A program made the translations under genes and the position numbers. This document shows positions 523 to 18,040 of a stretch of 64,000 bases of DNA, piece by piece. Location: the NCBI GenBank assembly GCA_930986425.1, contig CAKNJR010000005.1:27638-91637 (forward strand). Reading direction: 5' to 3'. The DNA is from an uncultured Clostridium sp. Lineage in GTDB: Bacteria > Bacillota > Clostridia > TANB77 > CAG-508. How positions within the stretch are numbered: the stretch's first letter is position 1; each line of letters starts with the position of its first letter. A model generated the notes under the pieces. It saw nothing but the letters and a program-made list of their open reading frames with translations. It did no database searches and was not told where the DNA came from.

Positions 523-555
523 GCTTTTATATCCTTTCATCAGATTAAAAGTTTA

Positions 556-1557
556 TTATAGTGTGACAGTAAATGATTGTTCTTCTACTAGGCCACTTAT
601 ATTTGTTACTGTAATTGTAACAGTATGAGTTCCTGGTGTTATTTCTTGAGTCGCTCTAATTTCTTTTTTATTTAAAGGAGCATCTCCTGTATCTGTTGTA
701 ACTCCATCTACTGTTATTGCAATTTTGCTAATTCCTTCTTCATCTTGTGCATTTATAACTAAGTTTGTTCCTTCTGCTGTAACTGTAAATGTTGGTCTAT
801 TAGCACCCTTGATTGTTTCTGTTTGAGTAGTTGTGTTTCCGTCATTATCTACTGCTGTAATTGTTAAAGTATTTTGTCCTCTTAATACCTCTACACTTGC
901 TCTTATCTGAGTTCTATCTGTGCTTGTAGAATCCAAATCTACTCTTGTAGGCTCTTCATCATTCCATTGATATGTTAAATATGACATCTCTGTTTCGTCT
1001 TTTGCTGTTATATTCAGCATATTTCCTGAAACACTTATTTCTATTGTTGGTTTTGAGCTTTCGTCTTGTTCATTTATATATTGTTTTTGGAATTGATATT
1101 CATTTCCATAGTAATCTGTTACTGTTATATTTAATATATTATTTCCAGTTGGAATTTGAGTTGTTGTTTCTAATTCTACTGTTCCGTTTCCTTGTACAGT
1201 TGTTGTTTCACCTTGTCCCCATCTATATTGTATTTGAGCGATAGGCATTTGTCCTACTGCACTTATTGTAACTTCAGTTCCTATTGGGTTTGCAGTAACT
1301 TGAGGTTCGTCTGCTAATTTTGGTTTTGATGATAGTATTCCATAAGTTGCATCTCCTATTAAAGTAAGTCCAAATAATATTATAAGTACACAAAAAACTC
1401 TTACTATTGAAACAATGCTAGCTTTATTTTCATTTGGGCTATTATAATCTACTCTTGTTTGATTATACTGATTTTTTTCTTTTTTTACCTTTTGCTGTTT
1501 AGCTTGTTTTTTTGGATTTGGCTCATTATCTGGTTGCATAGATAATATCTGATTCAT
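556..1557 (-). CDS. Membrane-anchored protein with tandem Ig-like beta-rich repeats
   Basis: 333-aa ORF with a K/Q-rich N-terminus and one TM helix (IVSIVRVFCVLIILFGLTLIG). Repeated beta-rich modules follow, ending in ITVTDYYGN / TITAVDNDGN / VTITVTNISG-type motifs. The gene starts 19 nt after the stop of adhesin A, so it looks operonic. Confidence 0.6.
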   Translation of the reverse strand: MNQILSMQPDNEPNPKKQAKQQKVKKEKNQYNQTRVDYNSPNENKASIVSIVRVFCVLIILFGLTLIGDATYGILSSKPKLADEPQVTANPIGTEVTISAVGQMPIAQIQYRWGQGETTTVQGNGTVELETTTQIPTGNNILNITVTDYYGNEYQFQKQYINEQDESSKPTIEISVSGNMLNITAKDETEMSYLTYQWNDEEPTRVDLDSTSTDRTQIRASVEVLRGQNTLTITAVDNDGNTTTQTETIKGANRPTFTVTAEGTNLVINAQDEEGISKIAITVDGVTTDTGDAPLNKKEIRATQEITPGTHTVTITVTNISGLVEEQSFTVTL

Positions 1558-1576
1558 ATTCTATTATCCTTTCTTT

Positions 1577-4105
1577 TTATATTACATACCTTTTAATTAA
1601 GAATACTCCTCCAGCGATAATTGCTAATGTTCCGGCTGTTATTCCTATATATAATGGTGCGCTACCTGTTACCATTGTTAATGCTACTGGTGCATCATCT
1701 ATATCATCTTCTCCTTCTACTTTATTATTTGGAGTTGAGTCTATATCTGGTGTTTCACTTTCATTATAGTCTTCGCTTATTTCTGCTGTATTTATCATTA
1801 CTCCCATGTTCTCTTCATCATTTATCCATGTTAGTACTATTTCTACTACTGCACTTTCTCCTGGCTCTAGTAATGTATCCTTTAATGCATCTGTTACTAC
1901 TTTTCCATCTACTTCTCTCCAGCCTGGGTTATCTGCTTGATTGAATTCTAGTCCTTCTGGAATGTAGTCTGAAATTTCTGTTGCATATCCTGGTATTTCT
2001 CCTTCATTTGTTATTCTTATTTGATATCTGAATTTTATTATTGTGTTATCTATTCTGTCTTGGTTTAAGTCTACTCTTACTACTGGTTCTGGGTCTTGTT
2101 CTGCATAATGGCCTGTATCTTTTACTTTTTCTACTCCGTCTTCTATTAGTATAACTTGACTTACCCATTTTCTTAATGCTAAGTCAAAGTATTGTACATA
2201 GATTTTCTCTATATCTTGGTCATCTTCTCCATCTATCCATTCGTCCGGAGTTGAATCTATATCTTCTACCTCTTCTCCATTTTCGTCTGCATCTTCACTT
2301 ATTTCTGCTCTATTTATTATTATTCTATCTGATGTATTTGGCTCTGTTACTCTGAATGCTACTCTTACATCTTTGTAGTCAGGTGTTTCCATTGTATCTT
2401 TATCATAGGCTTGTATTAAGTTTTCCCCTAGTGTTTCTTCATTTTCTTTTGATAGATAGTCTGTTCTTATATATACTGCCTCTTCTGCATTTTCTGTTAC
2501 ATTTCCATTTGCATCATACATTACCCATCTGTATTCTTGGTTTACTTCGTTTTCCGGTAAGAATATTAATCCTTCTGGTACATCATCTTTTATTTCTTCT
2601 GCATATCCTGACATATTTCCTTCGTTGTATATTCTTATTGTATATATTACTATATCATTTTGGCATACTCTTACTGGCTCTTTTGTGTGGTTATATGTGA
2701 AGCTTGTTATTATATTGCCATTTTCATCTTCTGTTCCATAAAGAGATGTGTCTACTTGTGGTATTCTGTTTGTTATTTCTTCGTCATTTACTCCTGTGAT
2801 GAATTTTCTTAATGCTAAATCAAATTGTTTTAATATTACCTTCTCAAAATCGTCATCGTCTTCTTGTCCTGGTATATATTCGTCTCCTCTTTCTATTTCT
2901 TCATCTCTGTAATTTGGTAAGTCTTCATCTGATGGTAATACTACTTCATTTTCATTATCTCTATCTGGTATATCTAATTCATTTCTGTATTCTGTTATTT
3001 CTGCTATATTTGTTATTTCTTTTAAATATTCTGCACTATCTCTTACTCTACATTTTACTTGTATATCTGCATAATCTAATGTACTTCCTCCATTAAATGC
3101 TGTAAGTAATGTATTTCTTAGGTAGTCTGTTTCTATTGTTCTTTCATCTGTCTGCGTCCAACCATATTCCTGATTTAATTCATCATTTGGTAAGAATTCT
3201 AGTTCTGGTGGTAGATGGTCTACTATCTTTTCTACATATCCATCTACTTGTCCTTCATTATATACTCTTATTGTGTATATTACTTCGTCGCCCTTCTTTA
3301 CTTCTACTGGCTCTTTTGTATGATTGTAATTTGCTGTTGTTTCTCCATTTAATAATGGGCTTGTATCTACTTCTGGTATTCTATTTGTTACTTCTCTATC
3401 ATTTACTCCTGTGATGAATTTTCTTAGTGATAAATCAAAATATGTTGGTTCCATTATTAACTCTTCGTAGTCATCATCATCTTCATATCCTTTTCCTTTT
3501 TCTGATGTTTCTGGGTTGTAATTGTTCTTTTCTTCTTCTGTTAAATTATCTGGAGTTGAATCTACATCTTCTGTTCCTCCTAAGATGTCTTCTGCCTCTG
3601 TGATTTCTGCTACGTTTTTCAATGATATTCTTTCATCACTTGCTCTTCTTACTACTCTACACTCTATTTGTACATCTACATAATCTAAGCCATTTGTTGA
3701 ATTTGCTGTGCCTTGTATTAATGTATCTGCCAAATATCTGGTTTTTATTGTTTGTCCTTCTGCTGTCCAACCATATTGTGCATTTATACTACTTTCTGAT
3801 GCTGGTATTAACTCTAGTCCTTCTGGTAAATAGTCAGTGATTTCCTTTGCATATCCATCTATTTTTCCTTCATTGTAGATTCTTATTGTATATCTTACTA
3901 TGTTTCCTGTTTTTACGATTAGTGGTGTTTTTGTATGTGTCTTTTCTGCTGTTGTTCCATCATCAAATGTTCCTTCTCCATTTGCAACAGATTGTGCTTC
4001 ATCTTCACTTATTTGTGGTTCACGGCTTGTCTCTACTGCATTTCCATTTATATGTGTTATATATTTTCTTAATGCTAAGTCAAATGGTTGCTTTCTATTT
4101 GTAAT
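1577..4105. repeat. Segmental duplication, copy 1 (3' end of adhesin A), matching 7050..9617
   Basis: 1577-3689 corresponds to 7050-9162 (offset 5473) and 3761-4105 to 9273-9617 (offset 5512). Both minus-strand proteins and all plus-strand antisense ORFs are letter-identical across these blocks (1621..1944 = 7094..7417, 2356..2700 = 7829..8173, 2812..3096 = 8285..8569, 3109..3414 = 8582..8887). The first mismatches I read are at 3690/9163 and 4106/9618. Confidence 0.85.
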
Positions 4106-6799
4106 AATTATTGTTATTGTATTTGTTTCTTCATCATATTCCCAGTTTGTAGCTTCTGAACTTACATTAACATTCTCAAGTATATATTCTCCATTTGATA
4201 CTGTTGTATGTGCATCTACTACTATTGGACTTGTTAGTACTGAATCATATCCTGTTGGAGCTGTTGTTTCTGTAATTGTTAAACGATAATGTTCTCCTTC
4301 TCCGTATATAGGATTTGTAATATTTATTTCACCATTTTCATTTGTTGTATAACTATTTGTTGCTCTTTCGGAACTATCATTTCCTGTACTCCTGTCTTCT
4401 ATTACTGTGCTTTCTACTGTAAATACCGCACCCTGTAATTTTTTATTAGCATCATTTTCATCTTGTTTTATTATTTTTAAATTATATGAGCCTTCTAATT
4501 TTTCATTTGGTACAGTTACTTGTACAGTTAACGCTCCTGAATTATTTACTATTGTTACATCTTCGTATTCTGTTCCATCTTCTAATGTTGCATCTACACT
4601 ACTTATTGTATATTGTCCATTATTTTCTGTTTTATTTACTTTTAGAGTAATTGTTCCTGAGAATGATGAATATTCATCAGGTGGTCTAACTTCTCTTATT
4701 GTTATTGTATCTTGTGATGTTGTGTCTGTGATTGCTATATCATTTATTGAGATTTCTCCATTTTCGTCTGTTTCGACTTGTGTTTCTTGCTCATTATTTA
4801 CTTTTACTGCAAATATTGCTCCTCCTAGTTTTTCATGTGTTAGCATATCTTCTTTTATGATTTTGAAATTATAGCTTCCTGTTATTTTTGTGTTGTTTAT
4901 TGTTACTTGTACTGTATTTACTCCATCTGAACTTGTTGTTAAATTTGCATTACTACTTCCTGTTACATTACTTGCCACATATTTTCCATTTTGTTCTTCC
5001 TTCACTACTGTTAATTCTATTGGAGTATTATTTAATGCATATCCATCAGGTGCTTCTATTTCGGTAATTGTTATTGTATCTGGATTTGAAACATTTGTTA
5101 TTTGTATACTATTAATATTTATTTCTCCATTAGAATCTGTTGTGTATTCTTGTGCACTTCCTCCATTTATGCTTATATTAAATCTTGCTCCTGATAATTT
5201 ATCTTGGTTTGAAGAATCTTGTTTTATCAATTTTAATTTATATGAGCCTGAAAGTGTAGAGTTATTAACTGTAATATTTACTGTGTTTACTCCATTACTT
5301 CCTTGAGTTACATTAACACTTCCATTTTCAACTAGTCCATCATTAACATTTGAAGTAACATTACTTGCTACATATCTTCCATCTTGCAATGCTTTTGTTA
5401 CAGTCAATGTTATTGGTGTATCATTTAAAATATATCCATCAGGTGCTGTTATTTCTGTTATTGTTATTGTATCTGGATTTGATATGTCTGTAATATTTAT
5501 TCCATCTATTGTAATCTCTCCGCTTGAATCTGTAGTATATGGAGCAGCTGCGCCATTATTTATGCTTATATTAAATGTTGCTCCATCTAATTTGTTTTTA
5601 TTAGAAGAATCTTGTTTTACTAATTTAAAATTATATGAACCCGTTGGTTTTGGTAGTGTAACTTCAGATGTACTTGAATAATTTTTGTTTACTCTATCTA
5701 TAATTACTACTGGTTGATTTATTGTAAGTTCATTTTCTCCTACTGTCCACATTATTGGAGTTGTGACTTGTGTGCTTACGGAAACCTTTAACACAACATT
5801 TTCTATGTTTGTGCTTACGGGTACTGATATATAGAAGTTATTTCCTACTGTAGAATTAATTTTATCTCCTATAGTGCTTCCTGCCGTAACCTCTTGCATA
5901 TTTTGATTTAATATGCTTACATTTGAAATATCATTTGTTCCATCTGTTATTGTTGCAGATAATGTATACTCTGTATCATTATTTTTTTCTAATGTATATG
6001 GTCCTATTATATAATTGCTTCCTTGTATTTGAACTCTAACAGAGTCCGAATTTAGTGTTACCGGATTTGCCGTATTAGTTTCATAAGTATATCCATCTCT
6101 TACTGCATTTATTGCACCTTCAACTAAATAAGTATATATTGTGTCTATTTCGTTATCTACTATGTCTAAACCATATCTGTCTATAAGCGATACTCCATTT
6201 ACATATAGTTCTAATGTATTAGTATATGGATTATGATATTCTCCATCTGGGTTAGTAAAATACCATATTGCTACTTGTTCTATTGACTCTACTATATCTT
6301 CTACTGCACTTGTAGGTATTGTTCCATCTTTGAATTTACTATTACTTCCTATTCCCACTCTTTGTAAAAATTGATCCAATGTTTCTGTGTCTGGATTGTA
6401 TATATGGTCTAATACCCATACCAATTCATTATATGTTGTCATATCACTTGGTAGCTGATTTCTATATGCTCCTGTTATTGAACTTGGATTTTTTATATCA
6501 AAATATTGTGTATATGCTATAGCTGTATTATCATAATCAGCTGAGCCAAATCCTGGCCCTGCCTTTATACAGAATATTACTGTTCCATCATCATTTTCTA
6601 CTGTTCCAGAGCTGTTGTATTTCACTATATCAAATATTGATTTGTTCATAAATGTATAGTTTCCAGTTTCTCTATCAGTTGAAAATCCTTTTAGGCCCAA
6701 ATACATTGGTCCACCACTTGCTCCTTCTGATATTCCCATTGTAAAAAGCATTATTAATATTATTAAAAATATAGCTTTTAATACACTTGTTTTTTTCAT
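1577..6799 (-). CDS. Giant surface adhesin A: thioester (TQxA-type) domain, 4 CnaB-type repeats, 4 DUF11-like repeats, C-terminal TM anchor
   Basis: The track ORF is 1577..6859. I prefer ATG 6799 (MKKTSVLK, GAAGGGA 8 nt upstream) because the predicted promoter lies at 6875-6903. A signal peptide is present. Cys in VIFCIKAGPGFGS and Gln in IEQVAIWYFTNPDG match the Cys / QxA(I/V)W thioester-domain signature. Repeats are of the form GSYNFKLVKQD...TITITEITAPDGY and FDLALRK...IYNEG...NVAEI...DVDSTPDN...EDDDD. The tail is TMVTG, then a hydrophobic helix, then KRYVI. Confidence 0.85.
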   Translation of the reverse strand: MKKTSVLKAIFLIILIMLFTMGISEGASGGPMYLGLKGFSTDRETGNYTFMNKSIFDIVKYNSSGTVENDDGTVIFCIKAGPGFGSADYDNTAIAYTQYFDIKNPSSITGAYRNQLPSDMTTYNELVWVLDHIYNPDTETLDQFLQRVGIGSNSKFKDGTIPTSAVEDIVESIEQVAIWYFTNPDGEYHNPYTNTLELYVNGVSLIDRYGLDIVDNEIDTIYTYLVEGAINAVRDGYTYETNTANPVTLNSDSVRVQIQGSNYIIGPYTLEKNNDTEYTLSATITDGTNDISNVSILNQNMQEVTAGSTIGDKINSTVGNNFYISVPVSTNIENVVLKVSVSTQVTTPIMWTVGENELTINQPVVIIDRVNKNYSSTSEVTLPKPTGSYNFKLVKQDSSNKNKLDGATFNISINNGAAAPYTTDSSGEITIDGINITDISNPDTITITEITAPDGYILNDTPITLTVTKALQDGRYVASNVTSNVNDGLVENGSVNVTQGSNGVNTVNITVNNSTLSGSYKLKLIKQDSSNQDKLSGARFNISINGGSAQEYTTDSNGEININSIQITNVSNPDTITITEIEAPDGYALNNTPIELTVVKEEQNGKYVASNVTGSSNANLTTSSDGVNTVQVTINNTKITGSYNFKIIKEDMLTHEKLGGAIFAVKVNNEQETQVETDENGEISINDIAITDTTSQDTITIREVRPPDEYSSFSGTITLKVNKTENNGQYTISSVDATLEDGTEYEDVTIVNNSGALTVQVTVPNEKLEGSYNLKIIKQDENDANKKLQGAVFTVESTVIEDRSTGNDSSERATNSYTTNENGEINITNPIYGEGEHYRLTITETTAPTGYDSVLTSPIVVDAHTTVSNGEYILENVNVSSEATNWEYDEETNTITIIITNRKQPFDLALRKYITHINGNAVETSREPQISEDEAQSVANGEGTFDDGTTAEKTHTKTPLIVKTGNIVRYTIRIYNEGKIDGYAKEITDYLPEGLELIPASESSINAQYGWTAEGQTIKTRYLADTLIQGTANSTNGLDYVDVQIECRVVRRASDERISLKNVAEITEAEDILGGTEDVDSTPDNLTEEEKNNYNPETSEKGKGYEDDDDYEELIMEPTYFDLSLRKFITGVNDREVTNRIPEVDTSPLLNGETTANYNHTKEPVEVKKGDEVIYTIRVYNEGQVDGYVEKIVDHLPPELEFLPNDELNQEYGWTQTDERTIETDYLRNTLLTAFNGGSTLDYADIQVKCRVRDSAEYLKEITNIAEITEYRNELDIPDRDNENEVVLPSDEDLPNYRDEEIERGDEYIPGQEDDDDFEKVILKQFDLALRKFITGVNDEEITNRIPQVDTSLYGTEDENGNIITSFTYNHTKEPVRVCQNDIVIYTIRIYNEGNMSGYAEEIKDDVPEGLIFLPENEVNQEYRWVMYDANGNVTENAEEAVYIRTDYLSKENEETLGENLIQAYDKDTMETPDYKDVRVAFRVTEPNTSDRIIINRAEISEDADENGEEVEDIDSTPDEWIDGEDDQDIEKIYVQYFDLALRKWVSQVILIEDGVEKVKDTGHYAEQDPEPVVRVDLNQDRIDNTIIKFRYQIRITNEGEIPGYATEISDYIPEGLEFNQADNPGWREVDGKVVTDALKDTLLEPGESAVVEIVLTWINDEENMGVMINTAEISEDYNESETPDIDSTPNNKVEGEDDIDDAPVALTMVTGSAPLYIGITAGTLAIIAGGVFLIKRYVI
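4100..5650 (-). repeat. In-frame tandem CnaB/SpaA-type domain repeats (4 units) inside adhesin A
   Basis: Four units begin with (T/S/E)GSY(N/K)(F/L)K(L/I)(V/I)K(Q/E)D and contain TITI(T/R)E(I/V)xxPDxY. Confidence 0.75.
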
Positions 6800-6874
6800 A
6801 TTTTCCATCCCTTCTAACACATTAAAATTATGTAATCTTCTTTTTATATTTTTTTGCATTTTTACTTATAATAT

Positions 6875-6903
6875 ACTATATATCAACAATTTCTTTTTTT
6901 CAA
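6875..6903 (-). promoter_or_regulatory. Putative sigma-A promoter of adhesin A (TTGAAA-17-TATAGT)
   Basis: The minus strand reads TTGAAA (6903..6898), a 17-nt spacer, then TATAGT (6880..6875). The same arrangement and flanking sequence (TTGATATATAGTATATTATA) recur upstream of adhesin B. Confidence 0.4.
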
Positions 6904-6928
6904 TAACTTTTTCAATTTTTTTCAATTA

Positions 6929-6970
6929 GAAACGGTCCTTAAATGATTTTTTTCATTTAAGGACCGTTTC
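6929..6970 (-). terminator. Perfect 18-bp stem hairpin downstream of adhesin B
   Basis: GAAACGGTCCTTAAATGA, a TTTTTT loop, then TCATTTAAGGACCGTTTC. It lies 80 nt past the adhesin B stop. There is no clean U-tract on the minus strand, so terminator efficiency is uncertain. Confidence 0.5.
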
Positions 6971-7049
6971 TGCCTAAAAATATATCTGATTCCGCCTAAA
7001 ATATATTTTTAAGTATTAAATTACATATCTTTATTTAAAACATTTCTTC

Positions 7050-9617
7050 TTATATTACATACCTTTTAATTAAGAATACTCCTCCAGCGATAATTGCTAA
7101 TGTTCCGGCTGTTATTCCTATATATAATGGTGCGCTACCTGTTACCATTGTTAATGCTACTGGTGCATCATCTATATCATCTTCTCCTTCTACTTTATTA
7201 TTTGGAGTTGAGTCTATATCTGGTGTTTCACTTTCATTATAGTCTTCGCTTATTTCTGCTGTATTTATCATTACTCCCATGTTCTCTTCATCATTTATCC
7301 ATGTTAGTACTATTTCTACTACTGCACTTTCTCCTGGCTCTAGTAATGTATCCTTTAATGCATCTGTTACTACTTTTCCATCTACTTCTCTCCAGCCTGG
7401 GTTATCTGCTTGATTGAATTCTAGTCCTTCTGGAATGTAGTCTGAAATTTCTGTTGCATATCCTGGTATTTCTCCTTCATTTGTTATTCTTATTTGATAT
7501 CTGAATTTTATTATTGTGTTATCTATTCTGTCTTGGTTTAAGTCTACTCTTACTACTGGTTCTGGGTCTTGTTCTGCATAATGGCCTGTATCTTTTACTT
7601 TTTCTACTCCGTCTTCTATTAGTATAACTTGACTTACCCATTTTCTTAATGCTAAGTCAAAGTATTGTACATAGATTTTCTCTATATCTTGGTCATCTTC
7701 TCCATCTATCCATTCGTCCGGAGTTGAATCTATATCTTCTACCTCTTCTCCATTTTCGTCTGCATCTTCACTTATTTCTGCTCTATTTATTATTATTCTA
7801 TCTGATGTATTTGGCTCTGTTACTCTGAATGCTACTCTTACATCTTTGTAGTCAGGTGTTTCCATTGTATCTTTATCATAGGCTTGTATTAAGTTTTCCC
7901 CTAGTGTTTCTTCATTTTCTTTTGATAGATAGTCTGTTCTTATATATACTGCCTCTTCTGCATTTTCTGTTACATTTCCATTTGCATCATACATTACCCA
8001 TCTGTATTCTTGGTTTACTTCGTTTTCCGGTAAGAATATTAATCCTTCTGGTACATCATCTTTTATTTCTTCTGCATATCCTGACATATTTCCTTCGTTG
8101 TATATTCTTATTGTATATATTACTATATCATTTTGGCATACTCTTACTGGCTCTTTTGTGTGGTTATATGTGAAGCTTGTTATTATATTGCCATTTTCAT
8201 CTTCTGTTCCATAAAGAGATGTGTCTACTTGTGGTATTCTGTTTGTTATTTCTTCGTCATTTACTCCTGTGATGAATTTTCTTAATGCTAAATCAAATTG
8301 TTTTAATATTACCTTCTCAAAATCGTCATCGTCTTCTTGTCCTGGTATATATTCGTCTCCTCTTTCTATTTCTTCATCTCTGTAATTTGGTAAGTCTTCA
8401 TCTGATGGTAATACTACTTCATTTTCATTATCTCTATCTGGTATATCTAATTCATTTCTGTATTCTGTTATTTCTGCTATATTTGTTATTTCTTTTAAAT
8501 ATTCTGCACTATCTCTTACTCTACATTTTACTTGTATATCTGCATAATCTAATGTACTTCCTCCATTAAATGCTGTAAGTAATGTATTTCTTAGGTAGTC
8601 TGTTTCTATTGTTCTTTCATCTGTCTGCGTCCAACCATATTCCTGATTTAATTCATCATTTGGTAAGAATTCTAGTTCTGGTGGTAGATGGTCTACTATC
8701 TTTTCTACATATCCATCTACTTGTCCTTCATTATATACTCTTATTGTGTATATTACTTCGTCGCCCTTCTTTACTTCTACTGGCTCTTTTGTATGATTGT
8801 AATTTGCTGTTGTTTCTCCATTTAATAATGGGCTTGTATCTACTTCTGGTATTCTATTTGTTACTTCTCTATCATTTACTCCTGTGATGAATTTTCTTAG
8901 TGATAAATCAAAATATGTTGGTTCCATTATTAACTCTTCGTAGTCATCATCATCTTCATATCCTTTTCCTTTTTCTGATGTTTCTGGGTTGTAATTGTTC
9001 TTTTCTTCTTCTGTTAAATTATCTGGAGTTGAATCTACATCTTCTGTTCCTCCTAAGATGTCTTCTGCCTCTGTGATTTCTGCTACGTTTTTCAATGATA
9101 TTCTTTCATCACTTGCTCTTCTTACTACTCTACACTCTATTTGTACATCTACATAATCTAAGTTACTTACTGGTGTTTGTCCATTTGTTGCTCCATCATT
9201 TTCTTCTACATTGCTTCCTGTTCCTCTTATTAAAGTGTCTGCTAAGTATGTTGTTGTTACTTCTCTACCATTTGCTGTCCAACCATATTGTGCATTTATA
9301 CTACTTTCTGATGCTGGTACTAACTCTAGTCCTTCTGGTAAATAGTCAGTGATTTCCTTTGCATATCCATCTATTTTTCCTTCATTGTAGATTCTTATTG
9401 TATATCTTACTATGTTTCCTGTTTTTACGATTAGTGGTGTTTTTGTATGTGTCTTTTCTGCTGTTGTTCCATCATCAAATGTTCCTTCTCCATTTGCAAC
9501 AGATTGTGCTTCATCTTCACTTATTTGTGGTTCACGGCTTGTCTCTACTGCATTTCCATTTATATGTGTTATATATTTTCTTAATGCTAAGTCAAATGGT
9601 TGCTTTCTATTTGTAAT
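7050..9617. repeat. Segmental duplication, copy 2 (3' end of adhesin B)
   Basis: See copy 1. It is interrupted by a divergent patch at 9163-9272, which is 39 nt longer than the patch in copy 1. Confidence 0.85.
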
Positions 9618-12600
9618 TGTTATTGTTATTGTATTTGTTTCTTCATCAAATGACCAATTTGTATTTTGTGGACTTGCTGTTATATTTTCTAGCATATATT
9701 GTTCATTAGTTATTGTACTATATGCATCAATTATAATTGGCTCTGTTATTAGAGTATCATATCCTGTTGGAGCTATTGTTTCAGTAATTGTTAAACGATA
9801 ATGTTCGTCATTTGCATTTATAGGATTTGTAATGTTTATTTCGCCATTTTCGTTTGTAATATAACTGTGTGTGCTTTCTTCTCCATTAACACTGGTTGTA
9901 ATATCAAATGTTGCTCCTTTAAGTTTTTTACTTTCATCATTTTCATCTTGTTTTATTATCTTTAAATTATATAATCCTTCTACCTTTTCATTTGGTATCT
10001 TTACCTGTACTGTCATGTTTCCATCAATGTTTGTTAATCCTATATCATCATAGTTTGTTTCACCATCTAAGGTTGCTTCTACATTATTTACTAAATATTT
10101 TCCATTATCTTCTATTTTATCTATCTTTAATATAATTGTTCCTTCAAAAGATGAATATTCATCTGGTGGTTTTACTTCTCTTATTGTTATTGTATCTTGC
10201 GATGTTGTGTCTGTTATTGCTATATCATTTATTGAGATTTCTCCATTTTTGTCTGTTTCGACTTGTGTTTCTTCTTCATTATTTACTTTTACTGCAAATA
10301 TAGCTCCACCTAATTTTTCTCCTGTTGTTTTATCTTCTTTAATGATTCTAAAATCGTAATTTCCAGTTATTTTTGTGTTATTTATTGCTATATTTACTGT
10401 GTTTACTCCATCTTGGCTTGTCGTTAAATTTGCATTGTTACTTCCTGTTACATTACTTGCTACATATTTTCCATTTTGTTCTTCTTTTATTACTGTTAAT
10501 TCTATTGGAGTATTATCTAATACATATCCATCTGGTGCTTCTATTTCTGTAATTGTTATTGTATCTGGATTTGAAACATTTGTTATTTGTATACTATTAA
10601 TATTTATTTCTCCATTAGAATCTGTTGTGTATTCTTGTGCACTTCCTCTATTTATGCTTATATTAAATCTTGCTCCTAATAATTTATCTTGGTTTGAAGA
10701 ATCTTGTTTTATCAATTTTAATTTATATGACCCTGAAAGTGTAGAGTTATTAACTGTAATATTTACTGTGTTTACTCCATTGCTTCCTTGAGTTATATTG
10801 ACACTTCCACTTTCAACTAGACCATCATTAACATTTGAAGTAACATTGCTTGCCACATATTTATCCGATTGTTCTTCTTTACTTATGGTTAGTGTTATCG
10901 GTTCATTATTTAGAATATATCCTTCTAATGTTTCTATTTCTTCTATTACTATTGTGTCATCTGTTGTGTCTGTTATTATGATATCATTGATTTGAACTTC
11001 ACCATTTGAATTTGTTGTGTATTCTCTTGCACCCTTTTCGTTTATGTTAATATTGAATTTTACCCCTTGTAGCTTTTGGGTTGTTGTTGCATCTTGTTTT
11101 ATTAATTTTAAGTTATATGAGCCATCTTTATTAGTATTATTTACAATAATTTCTACTGTATTTACTCCATCTGGATTTGTTACTAAATTAGCATTATTAC
11201 TTCCTGTTACGTTGCTTGCTACATAACGGTTTTCTTGTTCTTCCTTGCTTACTGTTAATGTTATTGGGTTTGAATTTAGAATATATCCCTCTAATGTTTC
11301 TATTTCTTCTATTACTATTGTATCATTAGATGTATTTGTTATTTCTATATTACTAATTTCGATTTCTCCGTTAGCATTTGTTGTGTATTCTTGTGCGCCT
11401 TCTCCATTTACTTTAATTCTAAATTTTACACCTTCTAGTTTTTGACTATTTTGTGCATCTTGCTTTATTAATTTTAAATTGTATGAACCTGTTTTTCTCG
11501 TATTATTTAATGTAACTTGTACTGTATTTTCTCCTATTATTTCTGCTATATCTTGCGAGCCTACTGGTTTACTCATACTTACTGATTCTACTTTATATTG
11601 TCCATCTATTTCTGTCTTTTTTACGATTATTGTAATTGGTTCTTCATTTAGAATGTATCCATTTATTGTTTCTATTTCTTCTATTACTATTGTGTCGTCT
11701 GTTGTATCTTCAATTTTAATGCCACTAATTTGAATTTCTCCATTTGAATTTGTTGTGTATTCTTTTGCACCTTCTCCATTTACATTAATATTGAATTTTA
11801 CTCCTTGCAACTTTTGTGTAGTTGTTTCATCTTGCTTTATTAGTTTTAAGTTATATGAGCCTTCTATTTTTTCATTCGGTATTGTTACCTCTACTGTTAC
11901 TTTTCCTGCGTTGTTTACTATTTCTACTCCTTCATGTTCTGTTCCATCTTCTAATGTTGCTTTTACATTATTTACTGTGTATTTTCCGTTTTCTTCTATT
12001 TTATCTACTTTTAATGTAATTGTTCCTGAAAATGATGAGTATTCATCTGGTGGTTGGATTTCTCTTATTGTTATTGTATCTTGTGTGTTTGTGTCTGTTA
12101 TTGCTATATCTTCTATTGAGATTTCTCCACTACTATTTGTTTCTATTTGTCTTTCTTCTTCATTATTTACTTTTACTGCAAATATTGCTCCTCCTAGTGT
12201 TTCTCCTGTTGTTTTATCTTCCTTTATTATTTTGAAATTATAGCTTCCCGTTATTTTTGTATTGTCTACTGTTATTTGAACTGTATTTATTCCATCTACA
12301 CCAGTGGTTAAACTTGCATTACTGTTTCCTGTTACGTTGCTTGCCACATATCTGCCGTTTTGTAGTGATTTTGTTATTGTCAGTGTAATTGGAGTACTAT
12401 TTAATATATATCCATCAGGTGCTTCTATTTCTGTAATTGTTATTGTGTCATTACTTGATATATCTGTTATGCTTATTCCATTTATGGTAATTTCGCCACT
12501 TGAATTTGTCGTATATGTTGTTGTTTGTCCATTATTTACTCTAATGCTAAATCTTGCTCCATTTAATTTATTTTGATTTAAAGCATCCTGCTTTATTAAT

Positions 12601-13784
12601 TTAAAGTTATATGAGCCTGTTATATTAGGTAATGTTACTTCTGATGAGCTTGAATAACTTTTGTTCACTTCGTCAATTACTACTACTGGTTGGTTTATTG
12701 CAAGTTCATTAGCTCCTACTGTCCATAATAGAGGGGTATTTACTCTAGTACTTACTGATATTTCTAATCTGACTTTTTCTATATCTGTATTAACTGGTAC
12801 TGATAAATAAAAATTATTTCCTACTGTAGAGTTTATTTTTTCTCCTATTGTACTGCCTTGTGTAATTTCACTTTTATTTCTATCTAAAATTTTTACATTT
12901 GAAATATTACTAGTTCCATCAGTTACAGTTGCTGATAATGTATATGCTGTATCATTATTTCTTTCTATTGTATATGGTCCTATAATATAATTGTTTCCTT
13001 CAATTGTGGTTGTTACTGAATTAGAATTAAGTGTTACAGGATTTACTGTATTACTATTATATGTGTAACCACCTCTTACAGCAGTTATTGCTCCTTCTAC
13101 AAAATATGTGTAAATTGTATCTATCTCATTATCAACGATATCTAGCCCATATTTATCTATTAATGATTCGCTATCTACATATAATTCTAATGTATTAGTA
13201 TATGGATTGTGATACTCTCCACTCGGATTAGTAAAATACCAAATTGCAACCTGCTCTATTGATTCAACTATATCTCTTACTTCGTTTGCTGGTATTGTTC
13301 CATTTCTAAAATCACTACTTCTCCATATTCCAGTTCTTTCTAGGAAGTCATCCATTGATTCATTTTCCGGATTATATAGATGGTCAAGTACCCAAACCAA
13401 TTGATTATATGTTGTCATATTTGTAGGTAATTGATTTCTGTATGAATCTTGAGTTCCTTCTGCAAAGCTCGAACTTTTTATATCAAAATATTGTGTATAG
13501 CTTATTACATCATTTGAATACGATTCTGAACCAAATCCCGCTCCTGCTTTTACACAAAAGATAACTGTTCCATCATCATTTTCTGTTGTTCCTGAAGAAT
13601 TAAATTTTACAATTTTAAACACAGATTTATTTAGGAAAGAATATTCTCCAGTTGCTCTTGCTGTCGATTTTCCTTTCAATCCCAAATATAATGGACCTCC
13701 ACTTGCTGCTTTAGAAATAGTAACCCCTACTAATAGTGCAAAGATTAGTGTAATTATTATCCTTAGTAATTTTTTCATTTTCAT
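7050..13784 (-). CDS. Giant surface adhesin B: thioester (TQxA-type) domain, 8 CnaB-type repeats, 4 DUF11-like repeats, C-terminal TM anchor
   Basis: 2244-aa ORF with an AGAGGGG RBS and signal peptide MKMKKLLRIIITLIFALLVGVTISKA. Thioester signature VIFCVKAGAGFGS / IEQVAIWYFTNPSG. Eight GSYNxK(L/I)IK(Q/E)D units and four FDL(A/S)LRK units. The last roughly 700 aa are identical to adhesin A. Confidence 0.9.
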   Translation of the reverse strand: MKMKKLLRIIITLIFALLVGVTISKAASGGPLYLGLKGKSTARATGEYSFLNKSVFKIVKFNSSGTTENDDGTVIFCVKAGAGFGSESYSNDVISYTQYFDIKSSSFAEGTQDSYRNQLPTNMTTYNQLVWVLDHLYNPENESMDDFLERTGIWRSSDFRNGTIPANEVRDIVESIEQVAIWYFTNPSGEYHNPYTNTLELYVDSESLIDKYGLDIVDNEIDTIYTYFVEGAITAVRGGYTYNSNTVNPVTLNSNSVTTTIEGNNYIIGPYTIERNNDTAYTLSATVTDGTSNISNVKILDRNKSEITQGSTIGEKINSTVGNNFYLSVPVNTDIEKVRLEISVSTRVNTPLLWTVGANELAINQPVVVIDEVNKSYSSSSEVTLPNITGSYNFKLIKQDALNQNKLNGARFSIRVNNGQTTTYTTNSSGEITINGISITDISSNDTITITEIEAPDGYILNSTPITLTITKSLQNGRYVASNVTGNSNASLTTGVDGINTVQITVDNTKITGSYNFKIIKEDKTTGETLGGAIFAVKVNNEEERQIETNSSGEISIEDIAITDTNTQDTITIREIQPPDEYSSFSGTITLKVDKIEENGKYTVNNVKATLEDGTEHEGVEIVNNAGKVTVEVTIPNEKIEGSYNLKLIKQDETTTQKLQGVKFNINVNGEGAKEYTTNSNGEIQISGIKIEDTTDDTIVIEEIETINGYILNEEPITIIVKKTEIDGQYKVESVSMSKPVGSQDIAEIIGENTVQVTLNNTRKTGSYNLKLIKQDAQNSQKLEGVKFRIKVNGEGAQEYTTNANGEIEISNIEITNTSNDTIVIEEIETLEGYILNSNPITLTVSKEEQENRYVASNVTGSNNANLVTNPDGVNTVEIIVNNTNKDGSYNLKLIKQDATTTQKLQGVKFNININEKGAREYTTNSNGEVQINDIIITDTTDDTIVIEEIETLEGYILNNEPITLTISKEEQSDKYVASNVTSNVNDGLVESGSVNITQGSNGVNTVNITVNNSTLSGSYKLKLIKQDSSNQDKLLGARFNISINRGSAQEYTTDSNGEININSIQITNVSNPDTITITEIEAPDGYVLDNTPIELTVIKEEQNGKYVASNVTGSNNANLTTSQDGVNTVNIAINNTKITGNYDFRIIKEDKTTGEKLGGAIFAVKVNNEEETQVETDKNGEISINDIAITDTTSQDTITIREVKPPDEYSSFEGTIILKIDKIEDNGKYLVNNVEATLDGETNYDDIGLTNIDGNMTVQVKIPNEKVEGLYNLKIIKQDENDESKKLKGATFDITTSVNGEESTHSYITNENGEINITNPINANDEHYRLTITETIAPTGYDTLITEPIIIDAYSTITNEQYMLENITASPQNTNWSFDEETNTITITITNRKQPFDLALRKYITHINGNAVETSREPQISEDEAQSVANGEGTFDDGTTAEKTHTKTPLIVKTGNIVRYTIRIYNEGKIDGYAKEITDYLPEGLELVPASESSINAQYGWTANGREVTTTYLADTLIRGTGSNVEENDGATNGQTPVSNLDYVDVQIECRVVRRASDERISLKNVAEITEAEDILGGTEDVDSTPDNLTEEEKNNYNPETSEKGKGYEDDDDYEELIMEPTYFDLSLRKFITGVNDREVTNRIPEVDTSPLLNGETTANYNHTKEPVEVKKGDEVIYTIRVYNEGQVDGYVEKIVDHLPPELEFLPNDELNQEYGWTQTDERTIETDYLRNTLLTAFNGGSTLDYADIQVKCRVRDSAEYLKEITNIAEITEYRNELDIPDRDNENEVVLPSDEDLPNYRDEEIERGDEYIPGQEDDDDFEKVILKQFDLALRKFITGVNDEEITNRIPQVDTSLYGTEDENGNIITSFTYNHTKEPVRVCQNDIVIYTIRIYNEGNMSGYAEEIKDDVPEGLIFLPENEVNQEYRWVMYDANGNVTENAEEAVYIRTDYLSKENEETLGENLIQAYDKDTMETPDYKDVRVAFRVTEPNTSDRIIINRAEISEDADENGEEVEDIDSTPDEWIDGEDDQDIEKIYVQYFDLALRKWVSQVILIEDGVEKVKDTGHYAEQDPEPVVRVDLNQDRIDNTIIKFRYQIRITNEGEIPGYATEISDYIPEGLEFNQADNPGWREVDGKVVTDALKDTLLEPGESAVVEIVLTWINDEENMGVMINTAEISEDYNESETPDIDSTPNNKVEGEDDIDDAPVALTMVTGSAPLYIGITAGTLAIIAGGVFLIKRYVI
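9612..12630 (-). repeat. In-frame tandem CnaB/SpaA-type domain repeats (8 units) inside adhesin B
   Basis: Eight units with the GSYNFK/GSYNLK/GSYKLK/GNYDFR start motif. Some units are near-identical to units of adhesin A (antisense ORFs 4890..5306 and 10375..10791 are near-identical). Confidence 0.75.
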
Positions 13785-13864
13785 TTTTTACCCCTCTGTT
13801 TTCTTTTTAATTAATTTACATCGTTATTGTTTTATATTATTTTTCGACATTTTATCTATAATAT

Positions 13865-13893
13865 ACTATATATCAAGAATTTATTTTTTTCAA
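13865..13893 (-). promoter_or_regulatory. Putative sigma-A promoter of adhesin B (TTGAAA-17-TATAGT)
   Basis: The minus strand reads TTGAAA (13893..13888), a 17-nt spacer, then TATAGT (13870..13865). It is homologous to the adhesin A promoter block. Confidence 0.4.
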
Positions 13894-13956
13894 TATTTGT
13901 TAAAATTTTTATTATTTAAAATGCTACTTATTATATTCTATTTTCATTGGTAAAAA

Positions 13957-13984
13957 AATAATCGCTCTTTTTTGAGTGATTATT
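13957..13984 (-). terminator. Rho-independent terminator after adhesin C
   Basis: On the minus strand, AATAATCACTC - loop - GAGCGATTATT is followed by TTTTTTT. One G-U pair. It lies 60 nt downstream of the adhesin C stop. Confidence 0.55.
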
Positions 13985-14042
13985 TTTTATAGCTTCATCA
14001 ATATGTTTTTCATATTGTATTGAAATTTATAGTTAATTCAGA

Positions 14043-14654
14043 TTATATTACATATCTTTTTATTAAGAATACTCCTCCAGCGATAATTGCTAATGTTCCG
14101 GCTGTTATTCCTATATATAATGGTGCGCTACCTGTTACCATTGTTAATGCTACTGGTGCATCATCTATATCATCTTCTCCTTCTACTTTATTATTTGGAG
14201 TTGAGTCTATATCTGGTGTTTCACTTTCATTATAGTCTTCGCTTATTTCTGCTGTATTTATCATTACTCCCATGTTCTCTTCATCATTTATCCATGTTAG
14301 TACTATTTCTACTACTGCACTTTCTCCTGGCTCTAGTAATGTATCCTTTAATGCATCTGTTACTACTTTTCCATCTACTTCTCTCCAGCCTGGGTTATCT
14401 GCTTGATTGAATTCTAGTCCTTCTGGAATGTAGTCTGAAATTTCTGTTGCATATCCTGGTATTTCTCCTTCATTTGTTATTCTTATTTGATATCTGAATT
14501 TTATTATTGTGTTATCTATTCTGTCTTGGTTTAAGTCTACTCTTACTACTGGTTCTGGGTCTTGTTCTGCATAATGGCCTGTATCTTTTACTTTTTCTAC
14601 TCCGTCTTCTATTAGTATAACTTGACTTACCCATTTTCTTAATGCTAAGTCAAA
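14043..14654. repeat. Segmental duplication, copy 3 (3' end of adhesin C), shared by all three adhesin genes
   Basis: About 14067-14654 equals 7074-7661 (offset 6993) and 1601-2188. Antisense ORF 14087..14410 is identical to 7094..7417 and 1621..1944. The first mismatch I read is at 14655/7662. The last 8 codons are synonymous-variant. Confidence 0.8.
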
Positions 14655-17600
14655 ATATTGTACGTAGATTTGCTCTATATCTTGGTCATCTTCTCCGTCT
14701 ATCCATTCATCTGGAGTTGAATCTATATCTGTAACATCTTCTCCCTCTGAGTCGCTATCATCACTAATTTCAGCTCTGTTTATTATTATTCTGTCTGATG
14801 TATTTGGCTCTGTTACTCTGAATGCTACTCTTACATCTCTGTAATCTGGCCCTTCCATTGTTTCTGCATCATATGCTTGTAATAAGTTTTCTCCTTCTGT
14901 CTCTTCTTGTGCTTTTGATAAATAGTCTGTTCTTATATATGCTGCCTCATTCGCATTTTCTGTTACATTTCCATTCGCATCATACATTACCCATCTGTAT
15001 TCTTGGTTTACTTCGTTTTCCGGTAAGAATATTAATCCTTTTGGTACATCATCTTTTATTTCTTCTGCATATCCTGACATTGTTCCTTCATTGTAGATTC
15101 TTATTGTATAGATTACTATATCATTTTGGCATACTCTTACAGGGTCTTTTGTATGATTATATGTGAAGTTAGTAATTAAATTGCCCTCTTCATCTGTTGT
15201 TCCATATAATGATGTATCTACTTCTGGAACTCTGTTTGTTATTTCTTCGTCATTTACTCCAGTAATAAATTTTCTTAATGCTAAATCAAATTTTTGCAAT
15301 ATTACTTTTTCAAAGTCGTCATCATCTTCTTGTCCTGGTATATATGCTATTCCAGAATTTATTTCTTCATTTTTATAATTTGGTAATTCTTCATCTGATG
15401 GTAAAACTACATCTCTCGCATTATCTCTATCTATTAAATTAGATTCATTACTATATTTTGTAATTTCTGCGATATTAGTAATGTTAGTTAATGTTGGTGC
15501 TGTATTTACAACTCTACATCTAATTTTTACTTCTTTATAGCTTAATGAGTTTGTATTTGAGTCAAATGCTGGTATAACATTTTCTACATCATTTTCTCTT
15601 GATAATATACTTGTTCTAAGAGTTCTTTGAGTTTCGTCTGATGTATCTATTATCCATCCATACTCGGCATTCAAATCATCATTTACTATAAATTCTAAGT
15701 ATGGTGGTAAGTGCTCTACTATTTCGTCAACATATCCATCTACTTGGCCTTCATTATATACTCTTATTGTATAAGTTACTATGTCGCCTGCTTCAACACT
15801 TACAGGATTCTTTGTATGATTATATGTTGCTGTTGTTTCTCCTGAAAGTAATGGATTAACATCTACCTCAGGCTCTCTGTTTGTTATTTCTCTATCATTT
15901 ATTGCTGTTATAAATTTTCTAAGTGAAAGGTCAAAATATTTTCCAAGCATAACTAGTTCTTCATAATCATCATCATCTTGATATCCTTTTCCTTCTTCTG
16001 ATGTTCCTGGAAGATAGTTATTTATTTCGTTATTAGTTAAGTTACCTGTTTCTGAATCCCTGTCTACTCTTCCACCTGTAATGTCATGTGCTCCAAGTAT
16101 TTCAGCAACATTCTTCAAAGAAACATCTTGCTCTGCAACATCTTTTGTTACTCTACATTCTATTTGTACATCTACATAATCAATAGTATATACTCCATTG
16201 TCTGGGTCTTTATCAAAAGCAGATATTAGAGTATCTTTTAAATAATCTGTTACTACTGCTTGTCGTGAAGTAGTGCTTCCATCAGTTGATACTGGTTCAG
16301 ATGCATATTCTGTCCAACCATATTTTGTATTAATTGTACTTTCACTTGCATCTACTAATTCTAATCCTGCTGGCAAGTAATCAATTATTGTATCAGCATA
16401 TCCATCTATATCCCCCTCGTTGTATATCCTGATTGTATATATTATTCTGTCATCTTTATCTACAACTAAAGGTGTTTTTGTATGAGTTTTTGTAACTGTT
16501 GTTCCATTGTCAAAATCAGCTGTTCCTGTTGCTAATGCTCTTAAATCCTCTTGTGTAATTTTAGGTTCACGGCTTACTTTTACTGGTGAGCCATTTATTG
16601 AAGTTATAAATTTTCTAAGTGCTAAGTCAAATTCTGGATTTGTTATTTGTATTGTTGTTGCGTCTCTATAATTTTGTTTATCTCTTGAAATTATTACGAC
16701 TGGTTGATTATTGGCTAAGCTTGCTTGTCCTACTGTCCAAAGTGTTTGTGTTGTATTATAATATTCTGCATTAACAGCTAATGTTGCATCTGTAATATTT
16801 GATGATATTGGAATTGAAATGTAAAAATTATTTCCAATTGTTGTTTGTATTTTTTCTGTTAAATTACTTCCAGTTGTTATTTCTTGTCTATTTTCATCTA
16901 ATACTTTTGCATTAGATATTGTTCCAGTAGAGCTGTATAACTCTGCTGATAAATTGTATTCTCCATTTGATTGTTCTTCTATTCTATAAGGTCCTAATAT
17001 ATAGTTTGAATTGTCCATTGTTAATGTTGCTTGATTTTTTATAAATGTTATTGGTGATGTTCCAATAATTGAATCTTCATAAGTATATCCACCATTAACT
17101 GCGTCAATTGCTCCTTGTACTAAATAATGATATATTGCATCAATCTCATTTTCTACTATATCTAGTCCGTATTTATCTATTAAAGATTCTCCATCAACAG
17201 CGATTTCTACTGTTTCTGTTGAATCATTATGATATTCTCCATCTGGATTTGTAAAATACCAAATCGCTACTTGTTGTATACATTCTAATATATCTTCTAT
17301 TTCTTGACCATATGTTGCACTATCTCTTAAGAAGCTATCTTCTGAAACTCCTGCATTATCTAGTAAATTTTGTTTTGATTCATTTGCAAGTGCTATTTCA
17401 TCTGATGTAGCTCCTGTTTTTGCTGGAATATATAAGTGGTCTAGTACCCATATCAACTCATTATATGTTGTCATATCTGTTGGAAGAGATTCTCTATATG
17501 GTGATTCAATTGCATCTGGATTTTTCATATTAAAATATTGTGTATAATTTACTATTGTATTTTGATATGATTCTGAACCAAATCCTGGTCCTGCTTTTAC

Positions 17601-17834
17601 ACAGTATATTGAAGCATTATCTCCTACCTCTGTTGTTCCTGTGCTATTATTATATTTTACAATTTTGAATATATCTTTTGAATTAAAAGTATATCTTCCT
17701 GTTTCTCTTTCTGTTGTTCTTCCTTTTAAGCCCAAATATATACCATTAACATCACTTACAGCATAATTATTTGTTGTAAACAATAAAATGGTTATTAAAA
17801 TTATTCCTATAATTACTCCTAATTTTTTTGTCAT
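14043..17834 (-). CDS. Surface adhesin C: thioester (TQxA-type) domain directly followed by 4 DUF11-like repeats, same C-terminal anchor
   Basis: The track ORF is 14043..17852. ATG 17834 (MTKKLGVIIG, AGAGAGG 7 nt upstream) is preferred because the predicted -10 box is at 17872-17877. Thioester signature SIYCVKAGPGFGS / IQQVAIWYFTNPDG. No CnaB repeats. The last roughly 200 aa are identical to A and B. Confidence 0.85.
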   Translation of the reverse strand: MTKKLGVIIGIILITILLFTTNNYAVSDVNGIYLGLKGRTTERETGRYTFNSKDIFKIVKYNNSTGTTEVGDNASIYCVKAGPGFGSESYQNTIVNYTQYFNMKNPDAIESPYRESLPTDMTTYNELIWVLDHLYIPAKTGATSDEIALANESKQNLLDNAGVSEDSFLRDSATYGQEIEDILECIQQVAIWYFTNPDGEYHNDSTETVEIAVDGESLIDKYGLDIVENEIDAIYHYLVQGAIDAVNGGYTYEDSIIGTSPITFIKNQATLTMDNSNYILGPYRIEEQSNGEYNLSAELYSSTGTISNAKVLDENRQEITTGSNLTEKIQTTIGNNFYISIPISSNITDATLAVNAEYYNTTQTLWTVGQASLANNQPVVIISRDKQNYRDATTIQITNPEFDLALRKFITSINGSPVKVSREPKITQEDLRALATGTADFDNGTTVTKTHTKTPLVVDKDDRIIYTIRIYNEGDIDGYADTIIDYLPAGLELVDASESTINTKYGWTEYASEPVSTDGSTTSRQAVVTDYLKDTLISAFDKDPDNGVYTIDYVDVQIECRVTKDVAEQDVSLKNVAEILGAHDITGGRVDRDSETGNLTNNEINNYLPGTSEEGKGYQDDDDYEELVMLGKYFDLSLRKFITAINDREITNREPEVDVNPLLSGETTATYNHTKNPVSVEAGDIVTYTIRVYNEGQVDGYVDEIVEHLPPYLEFIVNDDLNAEYGWIIDTSDETQRTLRTSILSRENDVENVIPAFDSNTNSLSYKEVKIRCRVVNTAPTLTNITNIAEITKYSNESNLIDRDNARDVVLPSDEELPNYKNEEINSGIAYIPGQEDDDDFEKVILQKFDLALRKFITGVNDEEITNRVPEVDTSLYGTTDEEGNLITNFTYNHTKDPVRVCQNDIVIYTIRIYNEGTMSGYAEEIKDDVPKGLIFLPENEVNQEYRWVMYDANGNVTENANEAAYIRTDYLSKAQEETEGENLLQAYDAETMEGPDYRDVRVAFRVTEPNTSDRIIINRAEISDDSDSEGEDVTDIDSTPDEWIDGEDDQDIEQIYVQYFDLALRKWVSQVILIEDGVEKVKDTGHYAEQDPEPVVRVDLNQDRIDNTIIKFRYQIRITNEGEIPGYATEISDYIPEGLEFNQADNPGWREVDGKVVTDALKDTLLEPGESAVVEIVLTWINDEENMGVMINTAEISEDYNESETPDIDSTPNNKVEGEDDIDDAPVALTMVTGSAPLYIGITAGTLAIIAGGVFLIKRYVI

Positions 17835-17871
17835 AATTTGACCTCTCTTCATATATTATTATACAATTTAT

Positions 17872-18025: not shown

Positions 18026-18040
18026 AAATAACGTACTCAC

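Follow-up and report, generated by a model that had tools for sequence, protein, structure and literature searches.

A three-gene adhesin array with probable recombinational homogenization of stalk and anchor and letter-perfect repeats most likely made by assembly

Introduction

The closest described counterparts of the genes considered here are the class II thioester adhesins known as TIE proteins, represented by BaTIE of Bacillus anthracis (Protein Data Bank (PDB) 6FWV), TIE86 of Enterococcus faecium (PDB 6FWY) and TIE p34 of pLS20. The p34 protein, the class II thioester adhesin encoded in a conjugation operon, is needed for mating to be efficient (PMC8092201). A CnaA-like isopeptide-bond domain that occurs in fibrillar adhesin stalks, formerly DUF11, has been renamed CLIPPER (PMC12617251). 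Concerted evolution is known from Helicobacter pylori babA and babB and from the yeast FLO genes (PMC5483490, PMC3512402), and general criteria for interlocus gene conversion have been set out (PMC2720389). Here we analyze three tandem, minus-strand paralogous adhesin genes, ordered C-B-A in the open reading frame (ORF) list, that lie near the start of a 64,000-nucleotide stretch of DNA from an uncultured Clostridium sp. (GenBank assembly GCA_930986425.1, contig CAKNJR010000005.1, forward-strand positions 27,638 to 91,637). We refer to the whole stretch as the window and number its first letter 1.

The original prediction, made from the letters of the window, had described long exact repeats among the three genes and read them both as a sign of gene conversion and as an assembly hazard. 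We consider it quite probable that both are at work: the array has undergone real recombinational homogenization of its stalk and anchor, and the letter-perfect identity of the repeats comes from a collapsed assembly.

Results

Repeat structure of the adhesin genes

We compared the repeats by BLASTN self-comparison of the window and by an exact-match scan. Genes A and B are identical over 2113 bp with 0 mismatches (1577–3689 and 7050–9162), as had been predicted, and the identity does start at their stop codons, base 1576 being unlike base 7049; over the 100 bp downstream of the two stop codons the sequences are ~40–50% alike. The stretch common to all three genes, given before as about 590 bp (1601–2188 in A), is slightly longer, extending over 593 bp (1596–2188, 7069–7661 and 14062–14654). 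The second A/B segment that had been called letter-identical (3761–4105 and 9273–9617) contains one mismatch (3808/9320), which divides it into exact runs of 47 and 297 bp. Near-identity of an internal CnaB unit (4890–5306 versus 10375–10791) was confirmed at 94.2%, with 24 of 417 positions mismatched and a longest exact run of 100 bp, and the N-terminal domains have diverged as stated, the synonymous divergence (dS) between A and B being ~0.8–1.3. The A/B boundary is sharp: identity falls from 1.0 to 0.5 within 100 bp. Identity of such length cannot have arisen by chance. The observation holds for the sequence as given; the organism's own DNA is probably not equally perfect.

A divergent island separates the two A/B blocks. 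Its counterpart in B (9163–9272) is 39 bp (13 codons) longer than in A (3690–3760), and the surface loop of CLIPPER-1 that it encodes reads QGTANSTNG in A and RGTGSNVEENDGATNGQTPVSN in B. Either separate conversion tracts end at this island, or selection has kept the loop different.

Homogenization of the membrane-proximal module

All three proteins end in four CLIPPER domains and a transmembrane (TM) anchor (Table 1), and synonymous divergence declines toward this end of the genes. Between A and B, dS is 0.8–1.3 in the tip domain, 0.09–0.6 in the SpaA stalk and 0 in CLIPPER-1 to CLIPPER-4, where the value of 0 is inflated by repeat collapse (see below) and the true value is perhaps 0.05. Between A and C, dS starts at ~1, drops to 0.33 in CLIPPER-3 and reaches 0–0.05 in CLIPPER-4.

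Comparison with the sister lineage L007 distinguishes the history of the individual domains. In CLIPPER-1 and CLIPPER-2, A and B of the window match the L007 A ortholog at 84–88% and C of the window matches the C ortholog at 82–83%; A-type and C-type sequences are only 68–72% identical to each other. Because both A and B match the A ortholog, B carries A-type CLIPPER-1 and CLIPPER-2, and the orthology matrix classifies CLIPPER-1 to CLIPPER-3 of B as A-type. In CLIPPER-4 and the anchor, the three window genes are mutually 99.7–100% identical and show 85–87% identity to either L007 gene; here paralogs within a genome are more similar than orthologs between genomes. In L007 itself, identity between the two paralogs at the 3′ end is only 80%, and no exact repeat reaches 40 bp.

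L017, which stems from another study, is a very close strain: it differs from the window at 2 sites in 2754 bp of A-specific DNA and at 0 sites in the intergenic region between B and A (x2). The 3′ end of its gene upstream of A diverges from window B by 7% over the last 612 bp and by 19% over the next 354 bp. Since so close a strain keeps a divergent 3′ end, the homogenization of A and B in the window clone is recent and lineage-specific. These sequence comparisons support homogenization of the membrane-proximal module by recombination between paralogs, apparently as ordinary concerted evolution, and we infer that conversion ran from A to B. The gene-conversion reading of the original prediction thus stands as far as homogenization of the 3′ modules is concerned, given that dS falls off in a gradient, that the last domain clusters within genomes and that L017 and L007 are unconverted; perfect identity as its proof does not.

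In the A ortholog of L017 (MUNK18 sample), GAA is replaced by TAA 61 codons before the normal stop (L017 positions 6200–6470, ~window position 1760). This early stop would cut off the membrane anchor, and may represent a real secreted or pseudogene variant, or an error.

Assembly origin of the perfect identity

The window is 100% identical to scaffolds labeled GLEN20-1_SAMEA5754823 (L006 and L001), and the same clone was found in assemblies from other samples: L010 (SAMEA5754833), L011 (SAMEA5754839), L008 (ERZ4883061) and L016 (ERZ4883056). Over ~16 kb of unique DNA, comprising gene D to the left of the array, the A-specific 5′ part, x2, the B-specific 4.2 kb, the intergenic region between C and B (x3) and all of C outside the 593-bp block, L006, L008, L010, L011 and L016 show 0 differences from the window. 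In the shared segments, and only there, L008, L010, L011 and L016 differ from it at 13–28 sites per copy, and each such difference has its mirror in the other copy, offset by +5473, +5512 or +6993. In L016, three sites lie in the triple repeat (B 7382, 7384 and 7446, mirrored in C at 14375, 14377 and 14439). Among the proteins of six assemblies there are seven biallelic blocks that assort independently of one another, and A equals B within each assembly.

Contigs of L005 and L016 end at window positions 1631 and 3635, each exactly 55 nt inside a repeat, and the L009 contig ends 77 nt inside the 345-bp block. The only A/B difference in the 345-bp block that every assembly keeps, at 3808, lies 48 nt from unique sequence, and the two differences of C from A and B at 1577–1595 are also within 55 nt of it; all collapsed variant sites in the A/B blocks are 93 nt or more distant. 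In all assemblies that pass through, the repeats have the same lengths (2113, 593, 297, 100 and 64). The alternative alleles are genuine, because they are present in A orthologs of other strains (P0121, P0127 and P0128), many of them matching C or the A ortholog of L007. Most simply, the two alleles at a mirrored site would be the real A and B versions; the true copies are then probably ~98% identical, with an implied divergence of ~2% (at least 48 of 2458 sites). A co-resident second strain was considered as the source of the alleles and rejected as unlikely: its single-nucleotide polymorphisms would be expected in unique DNA as well (L017 is ~1% different in D), where there are none.

The GLEN20 label presumably denotes Glendinning et al. 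2020, in which case the reads would be 150-bp paired-end Illumina reads and the birds would have been housed in one room. If so, a clone shared between samples and 593-bp and 2113-bp repeats that cannot be spanned would follow directly. The assembly hazard pointed out before is borne out by differences that are mirrored and confined to repeats and by contigs that break 55 nt into a repeat, whereas the claim that kilobase-scale perfect repeats imply recent or ongoing conversion reads too much into them: the perfection behaves as an assembly product. Most likely, the shared segment is a collapsed consensus, its letter-perfect identity having been made by short-read assembly.

Several points weigh against this interpretation. 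The data are assemblies, in which the two alleles of a mirrored site do not appear together in one sample, and the mirrored differences could in principle truly distinguish the birds if conversion had reached both copies in each bird. In addition, the assembly method of the window is presumed rather than documented, and the number of genes and their order (C-B-A versus C-A-B) depend on how the graph was traversed; the adjacency of A and D in L017 favors the given order C-B-A.

A sequence of events that would account for the data begins with a tandem array C-B-A of paralogous fibrillar adhesin genes, each with a class-II-like thioester tip, 0 to ~9 CnaB/SpaA domains, four CLIPPER domains and an anchor. 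Homologous recombination between the paralogs, by interlocus gene conversion or unequal exchange, would even out the membrane-proximal module: A-type sequence would take over CLIPPER-1 to CLIPPER-4 of B, CLIPPER-4 and the anchor would become common to all three genes, and the ligand-binding tips would remain old and divergent. During assembly in a de Bruijn graph with k = 55, shared sequence more than 55 nt from a unique anchor would merge into one path, bubbles between paralog variants would be popped to one allele, and the collapsed path would then be threaded through each copy.

Alternative explanations

It is conceivable but improbable that the copies are truly letter-identical in each cell through frequent ongoing conversion among A, B and C, each bird having fixed its own mosaic. 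This would agree with the identity of A and B in every assembly that passes through the repeat and with the varying state of homogenization among strains (L017 unconverted, L009 with two genes, P0096 chimeric). However, a collapsed repeat gives the same picture of A and B whatever the truth. True identity would mean that birds vary at ~48 sites within 2.46 kb and at 0 sites in the ~16 kb of unique DNA around them, and that conversion was complete in both copies for every one of the ~36 block states. Several of the alternative alleles (3939A, 3974T and 3982G) have no donor elsewhere in the window, and the signatures of k = 55, in contig ends and in the positions of retained differences, are what collapse predicts and biology does not. 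A related possibility, to which we assign slightly less weight still, is that the ~48-site alleles are a standing within-population mosaic from very frequent A/B/C conversion rather than fixed A and B versions. If this were true, the array would be a recombination-driven generator of diversity in the adhesin stalk, with gene gain and loss (L009 and P0096) as by-products.

We regard it as very unlikely that the triad itself is an assembly artifact, with fewer genes in reality or with a B gene that is chimeric or derived from another strain or locus. The 593-bp and 2113-bp repeats do exceed the span of short reads; in L009, C is directly followed by x2 and an A-like gene, and P0096 is a B/A chimera on a 6-kb contig. 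Against an artifact, five assemblies from different samples connect the unique 4.2-kb 5′ sequence of B and x3 with C and with x2/A. Three repeat copies are needed, because the repeat is entered from three different 5′ bodies and left by as many different flanks (D, x2 and x3). The A-like gene of L009, assembled at 4x coverage, is only 97% identical to window A, and L009 therefore represents another strain. P0096 (1971 residues, on a 6006-bp contig) has a B-type tip and first SpaA units (98% identical to B) and is A-type thereafter (99% identical to A); the switch occurs from about residue 1200 of B, inside the 94–98% identical SpaA unit at 4890–5306 and 10375–10791. The forms seen in L009 and P0096 could be real deletion or fusion recombinants, or equally graph mis-traversals.

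The suggested cassette-like variation mechanism found no direct support: the genes are full-length, it is the conserved stalk that is homogenized, and the recombinase appears to lie on a separate mobile element. A programmed antigenic- or phase-variation system shuffling adhesin modules, possibly by means of the adjacent large serine recombinase ~1 kb from gene C, could draw on the direct repeats and the mosaic pattern, yet we think it highly unlikely. A, B and C are all complete: each has its signal peptide and its promoter-like site, and none is a silent cassette. The homogenized part is the conserved stalk and anchor, while the tips are the most divergent part and are not exchanged. No inverted repeats flank promoters or gene segments, and a search for invertible elements by inverted repeats over 1–19 kb returned only a terminator-like hairpin in x2. 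The recombinase, finally, sits with a Mob_Pre relaxase beside tRNA-Cys in a block that is absent from L007, which fits an integrative mobilizable element. In cassette systems of the pilE/pilS, vlsE and MgPar type, silent promoterless donors serve one expression site and the exchanged segment is the variable exposed part; here there are three complete ORFs, and the conserved stalk and anchor are homogenized.

Strong purifying selection acting, in the absence of recombination, on stalk and anchor would suit a shared part that is a structural module (CLIPPER domains plus anchor), but we reject it as having next to no probability because selection alone cannot remove synonymous differences, and synonymous divergence is also zero there versus ~1 in the 5′ parts of the same genes, while the L007 and L017 orthologs tolerate 7–20% divergence.

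Domain architecture and tip fold

The translations of A, B and C begin with a signal-like N-terminal segment and contain four CLIPPER units, each opening with FDLALRK. Pfam places DUF11/CLIPPER (PF01345) at the C-terminal end of all three, which TIGR01451 also matches, and finds 4 SpaA (PF17802) stretches in A, 8 in B and 0 in C. Gene callers start gene A at an ATG at 6799, giving 1740 residues, as in L006 and L008.

The C-termini (1577–1700 in A) consist of ...APVALTMVTG, a hydrophobic helix and KRYVI, a tripartite layout that recalls a sortase signal. No LPXTG sortase signal was found near the C-termini in the translations of A, B and C. A sortase gene is present at 55631–56356, and TMVTG is a candidate non-canonical sorting motif of the adhesins.

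Sequence searches of Pfam, PDB and NCBIfam with the ~375-residue tip domain gave no thioester-domain match. An AlphaFold2 model of residues 31–405 of C, built from 24 homologs, has a confidence score (pLDDT) of 88.6. The top Foldseek matches of this model in the PDB are 6fwv and 6fwy, followed by Cpa (E 3.6e-10 to 6e-4); the first two have a probability of 1.0 and E ~1e-10. TM-scores are low, at 0.26–0.33. The model suggests a thioester-domain fold at the N-terminus, and its assignment to class II is tentative because the TM-scores are low. In the 24-sequence tip alignment, C54, Q164, A166, I167 and W168 are invariant (Cys plus a Q-x-A-I-W motif). They lie within the motifs IFC[IV]KAG and EQVAIWYFTNP of the translations, and Cys and Gln form the predicted thioester pair. 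Judging from the model, A, B and C are putative TIE-like adhesins with a membrane anchor replacing the sortase signal.

Intergenic regions and neighborhood

In L009 and L017, x2 follows the upstream gene with 100% identity. Its hairpin (6919–6980) has 28-nt arms that are 86% complementary and a 6-nt loop, and was missed by a simple terminator scan; it probably terminates B. The x3 region, taken with the gene ends that flank it, is a diverged paralog of the x2 region (82% over 3.2 kb). The promoter-like hexamers are common to A and B, and C has its own; all are consensus matches at a level not above chance in AT-rich DNA.

Gene D, a GGDEF gene and the mraZ/dcw cluster border the array on the left, and tRNA-Gly (18041–18116) and tRNA-Cys (18209–18282) on the right. 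The tRNAs are followed by a large serine recombinase (18858–20777), a Mob_Pre relaxase (21051–22445) and a transglutaminase-like gene (22899–24257), a block that is missing from L007 and has the look of an integrative mobilizable element at tRNA-Cys. Besides the shared segments, samples differ in just one zone, 18463–21530, where L010 is ~10% divergent at 19170–19700; the mobilizable block is possibly likewise mixed or collapsed in assembly. Searching a plasmid collection with window positions 1–20000 yielded an 85-bp tRNA as the sole match, and the adhesin locus therefore corresponds to no known plasmid. A scan of genome contigs with gene D returned four distant relatives (25–44% identity), no close species representative and no useful comparison of the array.

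Farther to the right, a Gram-positive cluster resembling a type IV secretion system (T4SS) occupies 30242–45975. It includes a VirB4/TraG-like ATPase (42346–44298), a PrgI-like gene (45523–45975), T4SS_pilin matches in 33070–35667 and 41138–42331, an NlpC/P60 gene (38939–39886) and a 1052-residue alpha/beta-hydrolase protein. Housekeeping genes flank it (D-Ala-D-Ala carboxypeptidase, M16 peptidases, nrdD, dnaB and ftsH). The cluster is apparently chromosomal and stable, because its arrangement is kept in L001 and L002 and partly in L007 (an S11 peptidase and large unannotated ORFs upstream of C). Beyond it, an inverted 146-bp match of 75% identity (46488–46631 versus 47592–47735) corresponds to two small opposed TrbC/T4SS_pilin-like genes, called in L001 as genes of 121 and 118 residues.

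Table 1. Coordinates of the adhesin genes, shared segments and intergenic regions in the window
Feature	Position	Strand	Description
Adhesin gene A	1577..6859	-	ORF of 1760 residues; signal peptide, predicted thioester domain, ~4-5 SpaA/CnaB domains, 4 CLIPPER domains, C-terminal TM anchor
Adhesin gene B	7050..13784	-	2244 residues; architecture as A with ~8-9 SpaA/CnaB domains; CLIPPER-1 to CLIPPER-4 A-type
Adhesin gene C	14043..17852	-	1269 residues (gene callers 1263); predicted thioester domain directly onto 4 CLIPPER domains and TM anchor, without SpaA stalk
Shared A/B segment, copy 1	1577..3689	-	C-terminal part of CLIPPER-1, CLIPPER-2 to CLIPPER-4, TM anchor; exact match
Shared A/B segment, copy 2	7050..9162	-	Exact match; variants of copy 1 recur at +5473
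593-bp triple stretch in A	1596..2188	-	Encodes CLIPPER-4 and TM anchor; identical in B (7069-7661) and C (14062-14654)
593-bp stretch, third copy, in C	14062..14654	-	Exact match
345-bp near-identical block	3761..4105	-	Start of CLIPPER-1; B partner 9273-9617; one retained mismatch (3808/9320)
Divergent island in A between identical blocks	3690..3760	-	Variable loop of CLIPPER-1
SpaA/CnaB unit 94% identical between A and B	4890..5306	-	B partner 10375-10791; likely switch point of chimera P0096
Intergenic region x2, between B and A	6860..7049	-	Hairpin 6919-6980; promoter-like TTGAAA-17-TATAGT at 6903-6875
Intergenic region x3, between C and B	13785..14042	-	Promoter-like hexamers as in x2, at 13893-13865
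Mirrored variant sites	2330-2456; 2690; 2843-3094; 2972		13, 1, 9 and 1 sites, respectively
Mirrored variant sites	3152-3245; 3499-3596; 3878-4013		4, 5 and 15 (in L008) sites, respectively

Discussion

The array adds one more family of surface adhesins in which the tips diverge and the stalk and anchor are kept uniform by recombination, in this case putatively thioester-tipped, CLIPPER-stalked proteins whose genes adjoin a T4SS-like cluster in an uncultured Clostridia bacterium of the chicken gut. The deposited genes A and B and proteins such as P0122, P0132 and P0095 would carry a consensus 3′ part, many 'variants' of these adhesins in public catalogs would largely be assembly permutations, and chimeras such as P0096 may not exist. 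Where a metagenome has been assembled from short reads, perfect repeats are no safe ground for inferring that gene conversion is ongoing.

What we describe is a combination of known kinds, ordinary concerted evolution of adhesins and a collapsed-repeat artifact. The proteins resemble the TIE class II adhesins in their predicted tip fold, in the invariant Cys and Q-x-A-I-W across the 24 homologs and in a stalk of CnaB/SpaA and CnaA-like CLIPPER domains after the tip. As p34 is encoded in a conjugation operon, so the genes studied here adjoin a Gram-positive T4SS-like cluster, and p34 likewise lacks LPXTG; by analogy, a role of A, B and C in mating-pair formation or host adhesion is plausible. 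Unlike typical TIE proteins, they have a hydrophobic helix and a KRYVI tail in place of an LPXTG sorting signal, their tips show no sequence-level match to Pfam or PDB thioester domains, and their membrane-proximal stalk is built of four CLIPPER domains. The genes here are three tandem paralogs versus one gene, and the thioester and isopeptide bonds are predicted.

As in the concerted evolution of babA/babB and the FLO genes, the paralogs are in part closer to each other than to their orthologs, and the mosaic has sharp edges, homogenized synonymous sites, divergent binding parts and a possible chimera (P0096). Unlike in those cases, the homogenized tract takes in the anchor-proximal stalk and extends as far as the stop codon; conversion is deduced here from sequence, and the extent of the tract is blurred by assembly collapse. 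The assembly itself resembles other collapsed repeats in de Bruijn graphs in its mirrored, repeat-only variants, in ends k nt inside the repeat, in constant repeat lengths and in differences that survive only within k of unique sequence. It differs from the usual collapse, in which a copy is missing, in that the path appears to have been threaded back through each copy, yielding the right number of genes with an artificial identity.

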